From: an uncultured Actinomycetota bacterium | Lineage (GTDB): Bacteria; Actinomycetota; Actinomycetes; JAHEKZ01 | Length of the DNA stretch: 64,000 bases | Assembly (NCBI GenBank): GCA_963829525.1 | Contig: CAWHIJ010000003.1 | Coordinates: 2,587,211 to 2,651,210 of the forward strand | Direction of reading: 5' to 3' | In this document: piece by piece, positions 34,488-42,316 of the stretch | Layout of the letters: each line of letters starts with the position of its first letter | How positions within the stretch are numbered: the first letter of the stretch is position 1 | Program-made: the position numbers and the translations under genes | Notes under the pieces: generated by a model | Database searches by the model: none | Told to the model about the DNA's origin: nothing | What the model saw: the letters and a program-made list of their open reading frames with translations, nothing else

Positions 34488-35306
34488 TCAGTTTGCCTCG
34501 TGGCGGAGGTGGACCACGTCTGCGGCAGCAACAACGTGCTCGCGCCCTTGCGCCTGAACCACGAGACCACCGCCGGCGTCAATCCGCGTTGCCCTTCCCT
34601 CCAGCTGGCCTCCGTCAGGCAGATGCAGGCGTACATCTTGACCGAGTGTGCTCGAGTAGCGCGTGTAGGCCGTGACAAGTCGGCCGTCGTCAGCGGCCCA
34701 CCGGAGGTACCACGACTCCCACGCCGCTAGCACGCCCACGAGCAGGGCAGGTCGGTCGACCCTGCCACCTTCCATCCGCACCGACGTGGCGGTGTCAGCC
34801 GGCATCTCATCGGCCACCTGATCGACGTTGATCCCCCAACCAGCAACGATCGCGCTGCCACCCGGAGCAGGGACAACCTCGCAGAGCACGCCCGCGATCT
34901 TGCGGTGGCCCGCCAACACGTCGTTCGGCCATTTGACCGTCGCCGATACCCCGAGCTGTCCCAGTGCGTCGACGACTGCCAGCGCAGTGAGCAGCGGAAC
35001 CCATCCCCAACGTGCGGGCTCGACGGATGGCCGGACGAGAACGCTCACCATGACCGATGTGTACTGCGGCGCCGACCAACTGCGTTCGTGCCGACCGCGC
35101 CCCGCTGTCTGCTCCTCAGCAACGAGAACGGTGCCGCTGGCTCCCCCAGCGCTGGCCAGCTGAACGAGCGTCACATTGCTCGACTCGACCGAGTCGGCCA
35201 CCTCCAATGACGTCCAGAGGCCCCCAGGGGTGACCACCTGCCCCGACAGAGCCTGGGCATTCAGTGGCGTACGCGGGGCGGAGGAATGAGACGTCGAGTC
35301 GGACAT
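34488..35306 (-). CDS. birA: Biotin--[acetyl-CoA-carboxylase] ligase, group I (no DNA-binding domain)
   Basis: BPL catalytic motif GRGRHERSWSAP. Conserved position next to accD5, as in mycobacteria. Confidence 0.85.
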   Translation of the reverse strand: MSDSTSHSSAPRTPLNAQALSGQVVTPGGLWTSLEVADSVESSNVTLVQLASAGGASGTVLVAEEQTAGRGRHERSWSAPQYTSVMVSVLVRPSVEPARWGWVPLLTALAVVDALGQLGVSATVKWPNDVLAGHRKIAGVLCEVVPAPGGSAIVAGWGINVDQVADEMPADTATSVRMEGGRVDRPALLVGVLAAWESWYLRWAADDGRLVTAYTRYSSTLGQDVRLHLPDGGQLEGRATRIDAGGGLVVQAQGREHVVAAADVVHLRHEAN

Positions 35307-35352: not shown

Positions 35353-37005
35353 TCAGCGCACCGAACCAGCCTCCAACGCAGCCAGCGCCATGAGGGCTCG
35401 AAGCGACAGCTCGTAGTCCGCCATCGGTGCACTCATCGCGTCCCCGATGATCTCCAGCAACCAGCCCTCACCGTCAGGGTCGGTGATGCCGGCCATCAAC
35501 AGCGTTGTGGCTCCAATGCCATCCAGCATCGCCAGCTCTGCAGGATCGGTATCGGGATCGCCAGCATGGAGTGCAACCACACGACCGTCGAGCGCAAAGG
35601 CGGTCTGCGGGTAGTCGGTAAGCCTGTACTCGTTGCCCACATCAGAGGTGAGTTCCTCGCCAGGTCGTGATGGGTCACGGTGGATGGCGTGCCGGACGGT
35701 GCGGACAACACCCCTCTCCAGGTCAGCCCGCGAGATCCACCATCCCAACGGATGACACTGCTCAGCCACCTCCTCGGCCACAAGGATCAACCGATCCTCG
35801 ACCCCTCGGTCGCGAGCATCATCCAGCGCGGACATGCCGCCACGAAGCAACCGCGCGGTATCGGAGAGGTCGCGACCGCGGAACATCCGGCGGTCAGCTG
35901 CGGCAATGGGAGCCTGGCCAGCCTGATGGGCTGCGACCCCGGCCGGCAACCCTCGCCCTGCGACGATCGGGACCGTCGCTCGACTTCGCTTGGCCCGGTA
36001 CTGCGCCGCATCAGCAAGACGAAAGAGACGGCCCGCGGTACCGACTTCGCCGACGTCGTCATCAGTCGATGCGACACCACACGACACACCCTCAAGGGGA
36101 GAACGCAGCACCAGACGGCAAAGCTCGTGGGCCGCCTCCACAACTAGGTCAGCTGAGACATCGGAGACCACGATGCAGAACTCGTCGCCGCCGAGCCTCG
36201 CAGCCACTGCCCCCGGCAAAGACGAAGCTGCCGAGCCGAGCATCCCCGCGAAGCGAATGAGGGCCCGATCTCCTGCATCGTGGCCCTGCTCGTCGTTGAT
36301 CCGCTTCAGACCATTGAGGTCACACACGATCAGGCTCACCGACGCCTGATCCGACCGGTGCCGGCTCATCGCGATGTCCAGGTTCTCGTCGACGGCACGG
36401 CGGTTGCCGATTCCGGTAAGCGGATCTGTGTGCGCCATCCGGTCGACGTTGTCGAGATGGTCGGCGGTCGCCAGAGCGGCACCGATCTGCGCTGCCACGA
36501 CTAGGGCGAGGTCAATGTCGGCCTCATCGAAACACGGTTGGTCTGCGGTGCGAGACAGGAAGAGCTCGCCCCAGATCCGACCGTCCATCGGAATGGGAGC
36601 GCCAACGCTGCAGTGTTTGTCGAGGTCGCGCAGAAGTTGGACGTCGGCGTCGTCTGGGTCACCGTCATCGAGGTTCGTTGCCCACCCGGTCAGCTGGTCA
36701 GCGAGCACCTGGAGGTGCACGTAGGTATCAGCGGAGTAGATCTCGTCGACTGGATCGGATACCTCTCTAGGCCCAAGTAGTCCGTCGTTGAGGAGGACGC
36801 GCACCTGACCAAGCTCGGCGTCCCAGCGCGAGATCGAGACCGATGCCGCACCCAGGGCCTCGCGCGCGGAACCGGCAGCTTGTCTGAGAAGGTCAGCCTC
36901 ACTCCCCGCCCACGCAGCCCTGGCGATCTCGGCGAGCGCACCAAGACGCGTCGCGACATTCTCGCGACGCGCGGTCTCAAGGCGTGGCTCATGGCCGACC
37001 GTCAT
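35353..37005 (-). CDS. GAF-GGDEF-(conserved C-terminal domain) diguanylate cyclase, paralogue 1
   Basis: N-terminal GAF domain. GGDEF domain with an intact RLGGDEF A-site and no RxxD I-site. C-terminal ~200-aa conserved domain. Start placed at MTVGHEP, with a GGAAGGAGGGG ribosome-binding site 6 nt upstream. Confidence 0.85.
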   Translation of the reverse strand: MTVGHEPRLETARRENVATRLGALAEIARAAWAGSEADLLRQAAGSAREALGAASVSISRWDAELGQVRVLLNDGLLGPREVSDPVDEIYSADTYVHLQVLADQLTGWATNLDDGDPDDADVQLLRDLDKHCSVGAPIPMDGRIWGELFLSRTADQPCFDEADIDLALVVAAQIGAALATADHLDNVDRMAHTDPLTGIGNRRAVDENLDIAMSRHRSDQASVSLIVCDLNGLKRINDEQGHDAGDRALIRFAGMLGSAASSLPGAVAARLGGDEFCIVVSDVSADLVVEAAHELCRLVLRSPLEGVSCGVASTDDDVGEVGTAGRLFRLADAAQYRAKRSRATVPIVAGRGLPAGVAAHQAGQAPIAAADRRMFRGRDLSDTARLLRGGMSALDDARDRGVEDRLILVAEEVAEQCHPLGWWISRADLERGVVRTVRHAIHRDPSRPGEELTSDVGNEYRLTDYPQTAFALDGRVVALHAGDPDTDPAELAMLDGIGATTLLMAGITDPDGEGWLLEIIGDAMSAPMADYELSLRALMALAALEAGSVR

Positions 37006-37142
37006 CAAACCCCTCCTTCCCAGTTCTATCGGCCCCCTTGGCAGCCACCCTTGAGAAGGAATCAGGACCGAGTTGATCATTTCGAGGTCCCGCCGGAACA
37101 GCGGGAAGGGCAATCTGTCCGCGAGCCCTGGCGCGAGGTGGG

Positions 37143-38849
37143 CTAGGGACGGCTCAGCGCGGCAGCGACGAGCACGCGCAGCAGCGTGACCAGGTCACGC
37201 TCTGGACCACTCAAGGTGTCTGTGTAGACCTCGACGAGCCAACGGTCGCCTCTGTCGTCCTGCCCGCCAGCCCCCACCACAGCGACAGCCACGAGATCAT
37301 CGAGGATCGCCAGCTCAGCAGCGTCCGCCCCCGGATCGTCGGCGCGCACCGTGAATGCACCGCCACGGAGTGCCTGCTGGGTCGAGGGGTATTCAGAGAT
37401 CAGGAAGCGCGAGCCAACCTCGTCGGCAAGTTCTTCTTGAGTGAGGCCTGGAAGCGCACGGTATATGGCGTACTCCACCGTGACGACTTCGTGCTCACCG
37501 GCCAGCATGTGCGAGAGCCACCAACCGACGGCGTCCAGGTGATGACTCACCAGGTCGGCGACCAGTCCGAGCCGCACTCGGGCCGGTTGTTCGGCCGCGT
37601 CGTCCAAGGCCCGCAGTGCGGCATCCAGAAGCTGGAGCGGCTCAGGGTGCTGAGCTCCCCGGCGTAGACGTCGTTCCTGAGACGAGACGGAGGCCTCAGC
37701 CGCCAAGGACGTTGAAGCCTCGACGGGAAGCGGCCTTCCGGCGACGACCGGGCGACGTGACCCAGTGCGTTTGGCCCGGTACTGGGCGGCGTCCGCCAGC
37801 CGGAATAGTCGTTTGTCATGGTCGACCGTCCCAGCTGCGTCGCCGGTGCTCGCCACCCCCACCGCCGCGCCGTGAGGCAACTCACGCCAGACCCGGGAGC
37901 ACACTTCCTCGGCGAAGACGACCAGCTCGTCCGGTGCGCGGCCAGCCACGACAACTGCGAACTCATCGCCGCCGAGCCGAGCCACGACAGCTTCGGGGAG
38001 CAGCTGGAGCGCAACTTCGAAGAGTATCGAGGCCATGTCCCGCAGCACTCGATCGCCGGCCTCGTGGCCGTGATGGTCGTTGACGTCTTTCAAGCCGTTG
38101 ATGTCGCACACGATGAGCCCGACTGCGGTGCCTTGTGAACGGTAGCCCTGCATCGCAGCCTGGAACCACTCATCGATCGCCAGGCGGTTTGCCAGGCCGG
38201 TCAGCGTGTCGGTATGCGCGAGCGTCTCAGCCCTGCCTAAGTGCTCAGAGGTCGCGATCGCCGCACCCACCTGCGCGGCAACAGCTACCGCGAAGTCAAC
38301 GTCATCGGGCCCGTACGGAGGCTGGTCGACCGAGCGCGTCACGAAGAGTTCGCCCCACACGCGTCCGTCGAGCGGAATCGGCGCGACGACGGCGCTGCCT
38401 TTGCCGAGCCGACGCACGAGATCGCCATATGACCCGGTCTCCTCGCTGCCGGCGGTGAAGGCCTGCTGCTGTTCCAGCAACGGGATGACGGGGGCGTAGT
38501 CCGACACGACGTAGAACTCACCTTCGGGGTCGAGCACCTCTCCTGGCCCAAGGTCGCCGTCGTTGAGGACACAGCGCAGCCGGGTGTGCTCGGGCTCCCA
38601 GATGCTCAACGAGACCGAAACCCCGTCCAGCGCGGCCATGGCGGCCAGCGAGATCCGGCGAAGGAGATCCTCACCTGCGGTGGTGGTCGCCACCCTTGCG
38701 ACATCAGCGAGGCCCCTGAAGCGTGTGCCGACGACCGACGGCGCGGGTGGCGCGTCAGATCCCCGAATCACACTGGTCTCGATGGTGTTCCCTCCTCCAC
38801 ACACATCGGGGGACGAGAGACCGACCTTGAGCGTCCCGATACCGATCAA
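37143..38849 (-). CDS. GAF-GGDEF-(conserved C-terminal domain) diguanylate cyclase, paralogue 2
   Basis: Same architecture and motifs (ARLGGDEFAVVV, RLADAAQYRAKR). Start uncertain (TTG at 38849, or GTG near 38771). Confidence 0.85.
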   Translation of the reverse strand: MIGIGTLKVGLSSPDVCGGGNTIETSVIRGSDAPPAPSVVGTRFRGLADVARVATTTAGEDLLRRISLAAMAALDGVSVSLSIWEPEHTRLRCVLNDGDLGPGEVLDPEGEFYVVSDYAPVIPLLEQQQAFTAGSEETGSYGDLVRRLGKGSAVVAPIPLDGRVWGELFVTRSVDQPPYGPDDVDFAVAVAAQVGAAIATSEHLGRAETLAHTDTLTGLANRLAIDEWFQAAMQGYRSQGTAVGLIVCDINGLKDVNDHHGHEAGDRVLRDMASILFEVALQLLPEAVVARLGGDEFAVVVAGRAPDELVVFAEEVCSRVWRELPHGAAVGVASTGDAAGTVDHDKRLFRLADAAQYRAKRTGSRRPVVAGRPLPVEASTSLAAEASVSSQERRLRRGAQHPEPLQLLDAALRALDDAAEQPARVRLGLVADLVSHHLDAVGWWLSHMLAGEHEVVTVEYAIYRALPGLTQEELADEVGSRFLISEYPSTQQALRGGAFTVRADDPGADAAELAILDDLVAVAVVGAGGQDDRGDRWLVEVYTDTLSGPERDLVTLLRVLVAAALSRP

Positions 38850-38885: not shown

Positions 38886-40550
38886 TCACGAGGCGACGAG
38901 GGGGTGCAGGGCAGCCAGCACCAGCAGCCGCATCACCCCGGCCATCTCTTGGCCCTGAGTGCTCAGGTCATCGAGAAAGACCTCAACCAGCCAGCCGTCA
39001 CCGTGCTCATCTGTCCCGCCTGCCGCGACGACGGCCGTCGCCTTGAGCCCGTCCAGAATGGCAACCTCTGCCGGGTCAGCCGTGGAGTCATTGGCAGCCA
39101 CGGCGTAAGAACCACCGCCGAGGGCGAACCGAGTCTGCGGGTAAGAGTCCACTTCGAAAGATCCGCTCAGCTCATCGCGCAGCTCGTCCGCTGCTATCTC
39201 CGATGGGCGTCGGTACAGGGAGAAGTCGACCGTGCGCACCGTGCCCGATGTGCTGCCCTTGAGCGATAGCCACCAGCCGACCCCATCGACGTGATGGGTG
39301 ACGAGGTCGGCGACGAGTCCCAGCCGGAACCTTGTGGTTTCGTCAGGCGCCTGATCGAGCGCACGCAGCACGGCATCGGTCAGGTGCCCAAGGGTCGACT
39401 CGTCACGGCCACGGAACATTCGGCGGTCGGGAGCCGCACTCTCGTCGGTATCGCTCAGTGAAACCGATTGGTCCGCCGGAAGCGGCCGACCAGCGACGAC
39501 CGGTACCCGTGATCTGATCCGCTTGGCCCGGTACTGGGCGGCGTCGGCCAGACGCAGCAGCCTGGCGGGGAGCTCGATCGCGCCAACGGCGTCTGTGGCC
39601 ACCACCACTCCACAGGCAAGCCCGTGAGGGAGCAGCTCCCACCCCTGCCGGCACGCCTCTTCAGCACCGTCGATCAGCTGGGCGGTGTCGGGGCCGCTCA
39701 CCGCGACGCAGAACTCGTCACCGCCCAGGCGAGCCACCAGCGAGTCGTCGAAGGGATGAGCAACTTCTGTCAAGATCTGTGCCAGCTGACGAAGCACCCG
39801 ATCGCCGGCATCGTGCCCCTGGTCGTCATTGATCCGTTTGAGCCCATTGAGGTCAACCACCGCAAGTCCAAGTGGCACCTGGCGGTCGCGCCACTTCACG
39901 ATGGCCTGATCAAGCCACTGATCCAGAGCTCGCCGGTTTGCCAACCCTGTCATCGAGTCGGTCTGCGCCAGAGCCTCGACTCGGTTTGCGTGGTCGACAC
40001 TCTCCATTGCGGCACTCACCTGGGCAGCAACAGCTGACACCCAGTCGAGATCGGACATCGTGAAGGACTCTCGCGAGTGATCACGCGAGACGAAGAGCTC
40101 ACCCCACCACTGACCGCCGTACAGCAGCGGCACACTGACGCAGCTCTTCTTCCGTAGCAGCTCGAGGTACTCCCGGTCGTCGGTGGCGATGGTTGGGTCC
40201 TCCAAGCTGAGGACCGCACCCAGCAGGCCCTCAGCCATGCCGGCGAGCCAGGTGCTCTGGTCAGCCTCGTAAACCTCGTCCTCCGGCTCTTCTTCTTCCC
40301 ACTCGACGAGATCACCGACGTTGAGGAGGACGCGTAGCACCTGACGCTCTGGATCCCAGACCCCCAAGGAAGCCGCATCGGCCTCACAGGCGCGGCAGGC
40401 CGCCAGCATGATCTGCTTGGTCGCCAGAGCCTTCGGGAGCCCCACCCCAGCACGGCCCACATCACTCAGAGCGCGCAGACGTGCCTCACTGCGCTCGCGC
40501 GCGCGAAGCGTCGCGGCGAGCGTTGATTCCCCACCCTCAGGTTCCGCCAT
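38886..40550 (-). CDS. GAF-GGDEF-(conserved C-terminal domain) diguanylate cyclase, paralogue 3
   Basis: Same architecture. Start placed at MAEPEGG, with an AAGGGGGAG ribosome-binding site 8 nt upstream. The longer listed ORF would overlap accD5. Confidence 0.85.
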   Translation of the reverse strand: MAEPEGGESTLAATLRARERSEARLRALSDVGRAGVGLPKALATKQIMLAACRACEADAASLGVWDPERQVLRVLLNVGDLVEWEEEEPEDEVYEADQSTWLAGMAEGLLGAVLSLEDPTIATDDREYLELLRKKSCVSVPLLYGGQWWGELFVSRDHSRESFTMSDLDWVSAVAAQVSAAMESVDHANRVEALAQTDSMTGLANRRALDQWLDQAIVKWRDRQVPLGLAVVDLNGLKRINDDQGHDAGDRVLRQLAQILTEVAHPFDDSLVARLGGDEFCVAVSGPDTAQLIDGAEEACRQGWELLPHGLACGVVVATDAVGAIELPARLLRLADAAQYRAKRIRSRVPVVAGRPLPADQSVSLSDTDESAAPDRRMFRGRDESTLGHLTDAVLRALDQAPDETTRFRLGLVADLVTHHVDGVGWWLSLKGSTSGTVRTVDFSLYRRPSEIAADELRDELSGSFEVDSYPQTRFALGGGSYAVAANDSTADPAEVAILDGLKATAVVAAGGTDEHGDGWLVEVFLDDLSTQGQEMAGVMRLLVLAALHPLVAS

Positions 40551-40681
40551 CGGCCCATTCTCCCCCTTGATCTTCGGCGCAGCGAGCCTTCTGCTGAACC
40601 GTGTCTCGACCGGGTAACCCCCTTGAGGCCCCCCGTCGCTACGCTGACCGCCACCTGTAGAACTCATCTCGCGAGCTCGGA

Positions 40682-42316
40682 GTGGGCATGGCTGCAAATC
40701 CCAGTGACTCTCCGTCCGGCCAGCCGGCTGCGACAACCGGCGTTGACCTGCACACGACAGCCGGCAAGCTCGCCCAGCTGCGCCACAAGCTCGATGAGGC
40801 CGTTCACGCCGGCTCAGCACGTGCGGTTGAAGCCCAGCACAAGCGCGGGAAACTCACTGCCAGGGAACGGGTGGAGACCTTCCTGGACCCAGGCTCATTT
40901 GTCGAGTTCGACGAGCTCGCCCGTCACCGGTCGCACAACTTCGGGATGCAGGAGAAACGTCCCTACGGTGACGGGGTCGTGACCGGTTCGGGCACCGTGG
41001 ACGGACGACAGGTTTTTGTCTTCGCCCAGGACTTCACCGTGTTCGGAGGATCGCTCGGTGAGGTCTTCGGCGAGAAGATCGTCAAGGTCATGGACATGGC
41101 GCTCAAGACAGGAGCTCCCGTCGTCGGGATGAACGACTCAGGTGGTGCTCGCATCCAGGAGGGTGTGACCTCGCTGGCCATGTACGGCGAGATCTTCTAC
41201 CGCAACGTGCAGGCGTCCGGGGTGATCCCTCAGATCTCGCTGGTCATGGGCCCATGCGCCGGAGGCGCGGTCTACTCACCTGCCATCACCGACTTCATCA
41301 TCATGGTCGACAAGACGTCGCACATGTTCATCACCGGACCTGAGGTCATCAAGACCGTGACCGGAGAGGACGTGGAGTTCGAAGAGCTCGGTGGCGCCAA
41401 GTCACACCAGGCCAAGAGCGGTGTCGCCCACTTCATGGCGGCCAGCGAGCAAGAGGCGCTCGAGCTCACCCAGCAGCTCCTCTCGTTCTTACCCAGCAAC
41501 AACCTCGATGAGCCCCCCGCCTTTGCCGTCGACGTCGTCGATGACGTCACCGACGATGACCTGGCCCTTGACACGTTGATCCCCGACTCGGCCAATCACC
41601 CCTATGACATGCACAAGGTCATCGAGACGATTGTCGACGACGGTGACTTCCTCGAGGTGCAGCCACTCTTCGCGCCGAACATGCTGATCGGATTCGGCCG
41701 CGTCGAGGGTCGGTCGCTCGGCGTCGTGGCCAACCAGCCGATGCAGTTCGCGGGAACCCTGGATATCGACGCATCCGAGAAGGCCGCCCGGTTCGTCCGC
41801 ACCTGCGATGCGTTCAACATCCCGGTGCTGACGCTGGTTGATGTCCCGGGCTTCTTGCCCGGAACCGACCAGGAGTGGGGCGGCATCATCAGACGCGGTG
41901 CCAAGCTGATCTACGCCTACGCCGAGGCCACAGTTCCGTTGGTCACGGTGATCACCCGCAAGGCCTACGGCGGGGCGTACGACGTCATGGGGTCCAAGCA
42001 CCTCGGCGCCGACATCAACCTGGCCTGGCCGACCGGTCAGATCGCCGTCATGGGTGCACAGGGAGCGGTCAACATCTTGCACCGCAAGGAGATCTCGGCG
42101 GCCACCGAGCGCGGAGAACTGGACGCGACCCGCGCCGACCTGATCGAGAGCTATGAGGACACCCTGCTCAATCCCTACCTGGCAGCCGAGCGTGGCTACA
42201 TCGACGCCGTCATCGAACCCTCTGCGACTCGGGTCCAGGTGATGCGTGCCCTCCGAATGCTGCGCACCAAGCGAGCCAACCGGCCGCCGAAGAAGCACGG
42301 GAACATCCCACTGTGA
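40682..42316 (+). CDS. accD5: Acyl-CoA (propionyl-CoA) carboxylase carboxyltransferase beta subunit
   Basis: Carboxyl-transferase domain similar to PccB/AccD5. Followed by a small epsilon subunit gene, as in mycobacteria. Confidence 0.9.

Follow-up and report, generated by a model that had tools for sequence, protein, structure and literature searches.

Three tandem diguanylate cyclases of an uncultured actinomycete carry a divergent GAF domain behind the GGDEF domain

The CdgE proteins of Streptomyces are active diguanylate cyclases in which a GAF domain, whose signal is not known, precedes the catalytic GGDEF domain (PMC7911125; PMC6205966). Activity has been described for CdgEgh of S. ghanaensis, in a G271/G272 numbering (PMC7911125), and CdgE of S. 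venezuelae is listed as a GAF-GGDEF protein (PMC6205966). Pseudomonas aeruginosa has a soluble cyclase of the same GAF-GGDEF order, Dcsbis (PA2771; PDB 4zmu), which is controlled by its GAF domain and whose I-site is described as self-blocked (PMC4937426). In the tandem-GAF cyclases and phosphodiesterases, such as CyaB2 (PDB 1ykd), two GAF domains control one catalytic domain, and among the phytochrome- and cyanobacteriochrome-regulated cyclases, such as IsPadC and Cph2, the latter has one GAF domain C-terminal to a GGDEF-EAL pair (PMC6755745). The locus treated here lies in a stretch of 64,000 nucleotides (the window) from an uncultured Actinomycetota bacterium (assembly GCA_963829525.1, contig CAWHIJ010000003.1, positions 2,587,211 to 2,651,210 of the forward strand). 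It comprises three cyclases, named paralogues A, B and C, which continue for about 200 residues beyond the GGDEF domain. The last ~170 residues of each are a GAF domain so strongly diverged that the GAF models of Pfam and NCBIfam do not detect it. The enzymes thus have the architecture GAF-GGDEF-linker-GAF, in which the catalytic domain is flanked by two GAF domains.

The three open reading frames (ORFs) stand in tandem on the minus strand, with B and C directly upstream of A and gaps of ~30-40 bp between them. The segment 35353-36000, in which an earlier reading of the window made from the sequence alone (the sequence-only reading) had remarked on the extra region, is the 3′ end of paralogue A, comprising the stop codon and residues ~372-586. 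The features of the array are as follows.

35353..37113, minus strand: paralogue A, GAF-GGDEF-linker-GAF diguanylate cyclase, 586 residues (ORF list, Pfam)
36472..36894, minus strand: canonical N-terminal GAF domain of A, residues 74-214 (Pfam PF01590, E 4.7e-8)
35980..36435, minus strand: GGDEF domain of A, residues 227-378, GGDEF motif at 36178-36192, no RxxD (Pfam PF00990, E 1.9e-29)
35866..35979, minus strand: linker of A, PIVAGR at 35953-35970 and Arg-rich RRMFRG at 35875-35892 (motif positions)
35356..35865, minus strand: C-terminal divergent GAF domain of A, residues ~417-586 (alignment; hidden Markov model (HMM) of the domain, E 3e-74)
37143..38849, minus strand: paralogue B, GAF-GGDEF-linker-GAF diguanylate cyclase, 568 residues (ORF list, Pfam, alignment)
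38256..38672, minus strand: N-terminal GAF domain of B; PF01590 matches its C-terminal half, and the structure model shows the full GAF set of secondary-structure elements
37755..38219, minus strand: GGDEF domain of B, ending at residue 365, GGDEF motif at 37959-37973, no RxxD (Pfam, E 3.4e-26)
37656..37673, minus strand: Arg-rich linker motif RRLRRG of B, in a region that is disordered in the model
37146..37646, minus strand: C-terminal divergent GAF domain of B, residues ~402-568 (AlphaFold2, Foldseek, domain HMM E 8e-74)
38886..40820, minus strand: paralogue C, GAF-GGDEF-linker-GAF diguanylate cyclase, 644 residues as listed (ORF list, Pfam)
40008..40418, minus strand: N-terminal GAF domain of C (Pfam PF01590, E 8.9e-10)
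39519..39968, minus strand: GGDEF domain of C, ending at residue 434, GGDEF motif at 39711-39725, no RxxD (Pfam, E 1.4e-26)
39408..39425, minus strand: Arg-rich linker motif RRMFRG of C (motif position)
38889..39398, minus strand: C-terminal divergent GAF domain of C, residues ~475-644 (alignment, domain HMM E 5e-70)

In A and B, the earliest possible start codon is likely too far upstream; in A, the true one may lie ~20-35 codons further downstream. ORF C runs with its first 46 codons into the start of a divergent accD-like ORF on the opposite strand (40682-40820), and translation of this paralogue probably begins at the ATG at 40667 or at that at 40550.

In each paralogue, Pfam recognizes only the N-terminal GAF and the GGDEF domain, leaving the ~200 C-terminal residues unmatched, and an NCBIfam scan of the three proteins returned only generic GGDEF-type matches and nothing for the tail. 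The full-length proteins are 40-43% identical to each other and the tails alone 37-41% identical, with 60 of 205 columns invariant. When the window is searched with a domain profile, these three copies and no other are detected, at E-values far beyond chance (E 5e-70 to 3e-74). The claim of a conserved, un-annotated region beyond GGDEF in all three proteins was thus sound, and the motifs that had been listed for it are all present in the given order, with minor deviations visible in the alignment. For instance, the first motif is RRMFRGR in A and C and RRLRRGA in B, the second is LRALDDA in B, MSALDDA in A and LRALDQA in C, A carries RLILVAEEV where RLGLVADLV had been read, and B has DAAELAILD in place of the DPAE- form. 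The motifs common to A, B and C are GWW(L/I)S, (D/E/S)YP(Q/S)T, D(P/A)AE(L/V)A(I/M)LD, and G(D/E)xWL(V/L)E(V/I). The tail is composed of two parts, a disordered Arg-rich linker of ~40 residues and a folded domain of ~170 residues, and the spacing is identical in the three proteins (74 residues from GGDEF to PVVAGR and 26 from PVVAGR to RRxxRG). Therefore, of the proposed ~200-residue domain that began with RRMFRGR, the shared tail stands, while the folded domain is shorter and RRMFRGR lies in the linker.

The structural evidence for the GAF identity comes from AlphaFold2 models of the B tail (31-sequence alignment) and of full-length B (72 sequences). The tail is modeled with a mean predicted local distance difference test score (pLDDT) of 87, reaching 91-98 in the core and 55-68 over the first ~40 residues. 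In a Foldseek search of the PDB, its strongest matches are all GAF domains, namely those of phytochromes and cyanobacteriochromes, the tandem GAF of CyaB2, and the GAF of PtsP (E 7e-7 to 5e-5, probability 1.0, template modeling score 0.5-0.64); one non-GAF match, the autoinducer-binding domain of CepR2, appears lower down. The full-length model (pLDDT 91.5, predicted template modeling score (pTM) 0.64) contains the same order of helices (H) and strands (E), H-H-E-E-(H)-E-H-E-H-E-E-H, in the tail and in the N-terminal GAF recognized by Pfam, and residues 371-381, which hold the Arg-rich motif, are disordered, with a linker pLDDT below 50. Structure prediction, which had been suggested as a check of novelty, thus places the tail in the GAF fold.

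Comparisons of sequence profiles lead to the same family. With hhalign, the tail profile matches GAF domains recognized by Pfam with 96.1-97.6% probability (E 3e-9 to 4e-12) and the N-terminal GAF of its own family with 97.5% (E 5e-12, 113 columns, 71-sequence profiles), while the GGDEF domain of the family, used as a control, gives 0.4%. The comparison is decisive only with deeper alignments, since against a 3-sequence alignment of the N-terminal GAF it is weak (probability 2%, E 0.023). The hhalign scores of the C-terminal GAF are similar for the N-terminal GAFs and for unrelated GAF repeats, and so do not mark it as a duplicate of the former in particular. The tail HMM also matches directly five canonical GAF repeats of the protein P0154, with domain E-values of 1e-8 to 1e-11, and these matches pass through g.eY.l.dYP.T..aL ... 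DP..DpAEla. P0154 is an unrelated histidine kinase of 1865 residues with eight GAF repeats, five of which carry YPxT...DPxxDPAEL; therefore, this signature marks a wider GAF subfamily. The sequence-only reading had called the spacing of the tail GAF-like, a remark borne out by both fold and profile homology, and had considered its motifs distinct from those of GAF domains, which does not hold for YPxT...AL and DPxxDPAEL as they recur in Pfam-recognized repeats of P0154. It had also taken the domain for an uncharacterized kind, to be given up if the region were assigned confidently to a known family, and the hhalign (97.5%) and Foldseek results make precisely this assignment, to the GAF superfamily.

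That the tail is instead a new domain family, related to no known fold, is extremely improbable. In its favor, the Pfam GAF models (PF01590, PF13185, and PF13492) do not match the three tails, the isolated tails of 31 family members give no match to any model of Pfam or NCBIfam even at E<=10, a PDB sequence search with 3-sequence and 32-sequence profiles returned chance-level matches only, and the GGDEF-GAF order was not found in the searchable literature. Against it stand the GAF topology of a confident model that matches GAF structures, the hhalign probabilities of 96-97.6% to canonical GAF domains with a clean negative control, and the direct HMMER matches to Pfam-recognized repeats. The miss by the curated models is a matter of model sensitivity, and homology is not excluded by it.

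The Arg-rich linker connects these proteins to CdgE. When the tail of P0047, a protein from the cultured Streptodolium/Yinghuangia, was used as query, ~90 Streptomyces GAF-GGDEF proteins of ~380-390 residues were retrieved, which align with the first fifth of that tail only. A representative of 382 residues from S. canus shares 45% identity with B along 337 residues, covering GAF, GGDEF, PVVAGR and ERRQFRG, and ends at ERRQFRGRLP. In this CdgE-like set (P0209-P0306), (D/E)RRxFRG(R) lies within a few residues of the C-terminus in 85 of 90 proteins, the GGDEF motif is present in all 90 (at residue 271 in 52 of them, in agreement with G271/G272 of CdgEgh), and RxxD is absent from all 90. Their likeness to CdgE is drawn from architecture, length and GGDEF position, through the 382-residue Streptomyces representative. 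The CdgE-like proteins and the window proteins share an N-terminal GAF, an active-type GGDEF, a tail with PVVAGR and (D/E)RRxFRG, and the lack of RxxD. The Streptomyces CdgE-type proteins (~383 residues), however, stop a few residues past the Arg-rich motif, whereas the window proteins add a GAF of ~170 residues and, unlike CdgE, occur as three tandem copies. Because the motif is terminal in the CdgE-like proteins, which have no extra domain, it lies outside the new domain, contrary to its earlier inclusion there, and the new element is the ~170-residue GAF behind it. By these alignments, the second GAF appears as an add-on to a CdgE-type enzyme, attached through a disordered Arg-rich linker.

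The other described systems resemble the window proteins in part. The full-length model of B matches Dcsbis best (Foldseek E 7.6e-16, 24% identity, 360 columns), but Dcsbis lacks a C-terminal domain and has an I-site, while the present family is devoid of any RxxD. CyaB2, which is among the Foldseek matches of the tail, also puts one catalytic domain under two GAFs; in this type, however, both GAFs are N-terminal and adjacent and bind cyclic nucleoside monophosphates (cNMPs) through NKFDE, whereas those of the window proteins flank the catalytic domain. The GAFs of phytochrome- and cyanobacteriochrome-regulated cyclases are the top Foldseek matches of the tail (6oap, 6sax, and others), yet phytochrome-type GAFs hold a bilin by a conserved Cys and lie upstream of the GGDEF that they control, while the tail lacks a conserved Cys and stands at the end of the protein. 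In the searchable literature, no paper using the terms GGDEF-GAF or GAF-GGDEF-GAF was found, and a C-terminal GAF in diguanylate cyclases was met only in the contexts of PelD and Cph2. These are known parts in an unusual order, and not a new fold, mechanism or signaling principle. Nonetheless, no description was found of a domain order with a sensor on both sides of GGDEF, and an entire GAF subfamily is overlooked by the Pfam and NCBIfam models. With the assignment, some 200 uninterpreted residues in at least several hundred clusters of actinobacterial cyclases become an interpretable domain, an enzyme family of uncultured actinomycetes is tied to the experimentally tractable CdgE of Streptomyces, and the result bears on the feedback control of cyclases without an I-site.

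As to the state of the enzymes, all three paralogues and 66 of 72 family members have an intact GGDEF motif, and D231, N239, D248 and R273 are at or near invariance in the family; from these intact catalytic residues, the three GGDEF domains are predicted to be of the active type. The RxxD I-site, expected five residues before GGDEF, is absent from all 72, with LPGA in its place in A, LPEA in B and FDDS in C. Conservation in the C-terminal GAF was surveyed over the same 72 members at a level of at least 70%, and the conserved residues are R, L, A, D, W, S, P, G, and E. GAF domains of the PDE2/CyaB type, which bind cNMPs, carry an NKFDE signature. No signature of this type was found in the C-terminal GAF, as no N, K or F is conserved among the 72 members, and no Cys is conserved either, the domains of B and C holding none. 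For these reasons a cNMP or a bilin is an unlikely ligand.

GGDEF proteins are catalytically active only when two of their catalytic domains come together, and it is typical of GAF domains to dimerize and to change conformation when they bind small ligands. Because of these two properties, the C-terminal GAF is, on balance, probably a second allosteric or dimerization module that gates the cyclase activity. The N- and C-terminal GAFs, one at either end of the catalytic domain, would together determine whether a productive pair of GGDEF domains can form, each enzyme would integrate two inputs, and the three diverged paralogues may answer different conditions. The sequence-only reading had proposed a second ligand-sensing or partner-binding module; the extra domain behind GGDEF is there, and a regulatory or partner role is the best reading of it. 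Several points weigh against a gating module. The pTM of the full-length model (0.64) does not allow a reliable placement of the C-terminal GAF relative to GGDEF, and the lack of a PDB relative by sequence search means that there is no ligand-bound template. The conserved motifs (W, S, R, YPxT, DPxxDPAE, WLxE, and D) could be purely structural, and Streptomyces CdgE works without a C-terminal GAF, which makes this domain dispensable for catalysis. Beyond the identity of the domain, moreover, a ligand, a dimer interface and an effect on activity are all things that we infer.

Instead of gating the enzyme, the C-terminal GAF might be a ligand-free docking or scaffold domain which recruits a phosphodiesterase, an effector, or a sigma/anti-sigma module for local cyclic di-GMP (c-di-GMP) signaling. 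In two-hybrid assays, Streptomyces CdgE is reported to contact the phosphodiesterase RmdB and sigma-WhiG (PMC13232838), although these interactions come from a protein that has no C-terminal GAF. Some relatives in which HD-GYP or EAL is fused to GAF-GGDEF-GAF fit a partnership between cyclase and phosphodiesterase, and the known ligand motifs for cNMPs and bilins are not conserved in the domain, which would also suit docking. However, YPxT and DPxxDPAEL are common to the GAF repeats of an unrelated histidine kinase, so these motifs would serve an intrinsic GAF function, either pocket or fold, and not a contact specific to GGDEF; in addition, the comparison of loci revealed no conserved partner gene beside the array beyond housekeeping neighbors. 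A docking role is, all in all, rather unlikely.

Less probable again is product feedback through a non-canonical c-di-GMP site that would stand in for RxxD and be made up of the Arg-rich (D/E)RRxFRG(R) linker, either by itself or jointly with the C-terminal GAF. Flexible Arg-rich motifs do bind c-di-GMP, as the RxxxR of PilZ domains does. The absence of RxxD from all 72 family members surveyed and from all 90 CdgE-like proteins would be in agreement with such a site, as would the fixed distance of RRxFR from GGDEF in A, B and C and its terminal position in 85 of the 90 CdgE-like proteins. Added c-di-GMP inhibits CdgE of S. venezuelae (bioRxiv 10.1101/2020.04.24.060822), but the published assay used trace labeled GTP, and competition at the active site could explain the result; furthermore, the absence of RxxD was read in the CdgE-like proteins and may not hold for CdgE of S. 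venezuelae. In the more divergent half of the family, the motif is lost and the C-terminal GAF is kept (RRxxR is found in 51 of 72 members in a loose form and in 30 of 72 in a strict one), therefore motif and domain are separable. The evidence is circumstantial throughout. A bolder form of the same idea, which we consider quite doubtful, is that the motif, clamped by the C-terminal GAF, would be an unrecognized allosteric nucleotide site, for c-di-GMP feedback or for another nucleotide, of which the three paralogues would be differently tuned versions. The second allosteric or dimerization module thus remains the preferred role of the domain.

The array and its domain have been maintained among relatives. 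Orthologues of paralogue A in related loci of metagenome-assembled genomes (MAGs) are 71-94% identical to it. Over 26 orthologues whose overall identity exceeds 55%, the mean identity is 76.1% in the N-terminal GAF, 79.5% in GGDEF, 71.2% in the linker, and 73.6% in the C-terminal GAF, which in the B lineage is the most conserved domain; from these regional values, the C-terminal GAF is under purifying selection. Orthologues in the order C-B-A recur in five MAG loci (L003, L005-L008), so the duplications are old and retained, and several other MAG loci contain C and A without B (two copies in L001, L009, L011, and L015).

Two genes border the array.

34488..35306, minus strand: birA-like biotin-protein ligase, directly downstream of the array (ORF; synteny)
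40682..42316, plus strand: acyl-CoA carboxylase beta-subunit-like gene (accD-like), divergent from the array (ORF; synteny)

Pfam finds BPL_LplA_LipB on the gene syntenic to birA in the loci L001, L018 and L019, and Carboxyl_trans on that syntenic to accD in L001. The accD-like carboxyltransferase gene, divergent upstream of the array, is followed by maf and a biotin carboxylase gene; downstream, on the same strand as the cyclases, come birA, a bPH_2 gene, and the genes of a two-component system. Related loci with flanks of sufficient length keep the arrangement of a divergent accD-like gene, the cyclases, birA, bPH_2 and a response regulator gene, with the exception of one locus in which the cyclases come after bPH_2. 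In Streptacidiphilus, a member of the Streptomycetaceae, a cyclase related to those of the window also lies near birA and accD, in the order accD, birA, adenylate cyclase, cyclase. The link of CdgE-type cyclases to a biotin ligase/acyl-CoA carboxylase locus seems to be ancient. The gene set around the array is actinobacterial, and the G+C content of the window is 63-69%; neither a tRNA gene nor an Rfam family at the gathering threshold was detected by tRNA and Rfam scans of its 64 kb.

The distribution of the family was determined by an exhaustive HMMER search over protein clusters at 50% identity, with a profile that included the end of GGDEF. At E<=1e-3 it returned 735 cluster representatives, the weakest of which may match only the GGDEF end of the profile; the number is 361 at E<=1e-10 and 105 at E<=1e-30. 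Most representatives have 500-620 residues and the GAF-GGDEF-GAF architecture. This search ruled out the tiny family suggested by a word-indexed search, which had given 33 matches, nearly all of them fragments. All named carriers belong to Actinomycetota (Yinghuangia, Streptodolium, Streptacidiphilus, and Vallicoccus), and in data with one genome per species the domain is carried by 16 MAGs of uncultured Actinomycetes, one of them labeled Nanopelagicales.

On the question of isolated occurrence, raised with the sequence-only reading, the domain was detected only behind GGDEF and in no intact stand-alone protein; every candidate examined was a fragment produced by a contig end or a frameshift. 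P0002 and P0014 come from frameshift-ridden long-read assemblies, P0009 lies at a contig end, P0094 and P0153 start inside GGDEF, and P0078 corresponds to the second half of a gene that is split in Streptacidiphilus monticola. In this cultured species (locus L018, 3033-4786, on a 7.0-Mb contig), the homologue is called as two overlapping ORFs of 323 and 261 residues. The split falls inside GGDEF and reflects either a pseudogene with a frameshift or an error of sequencing.

Some members of the family have additional domains. In P0153 and P0167 a canonical GAF is added after the divergent one, forming a tandem behind GGDEF. HD-GYP is fused N-terminally to GAF-GGDEF-GAF in P0113, P0140 and P0174, and EAL in P0171 and P0172; these phosphodiesterase-fused members are composite enzymes that make and break c-di-GMP, in parallel to the interaction reported for CdgE with RmdB in Streptomyces.

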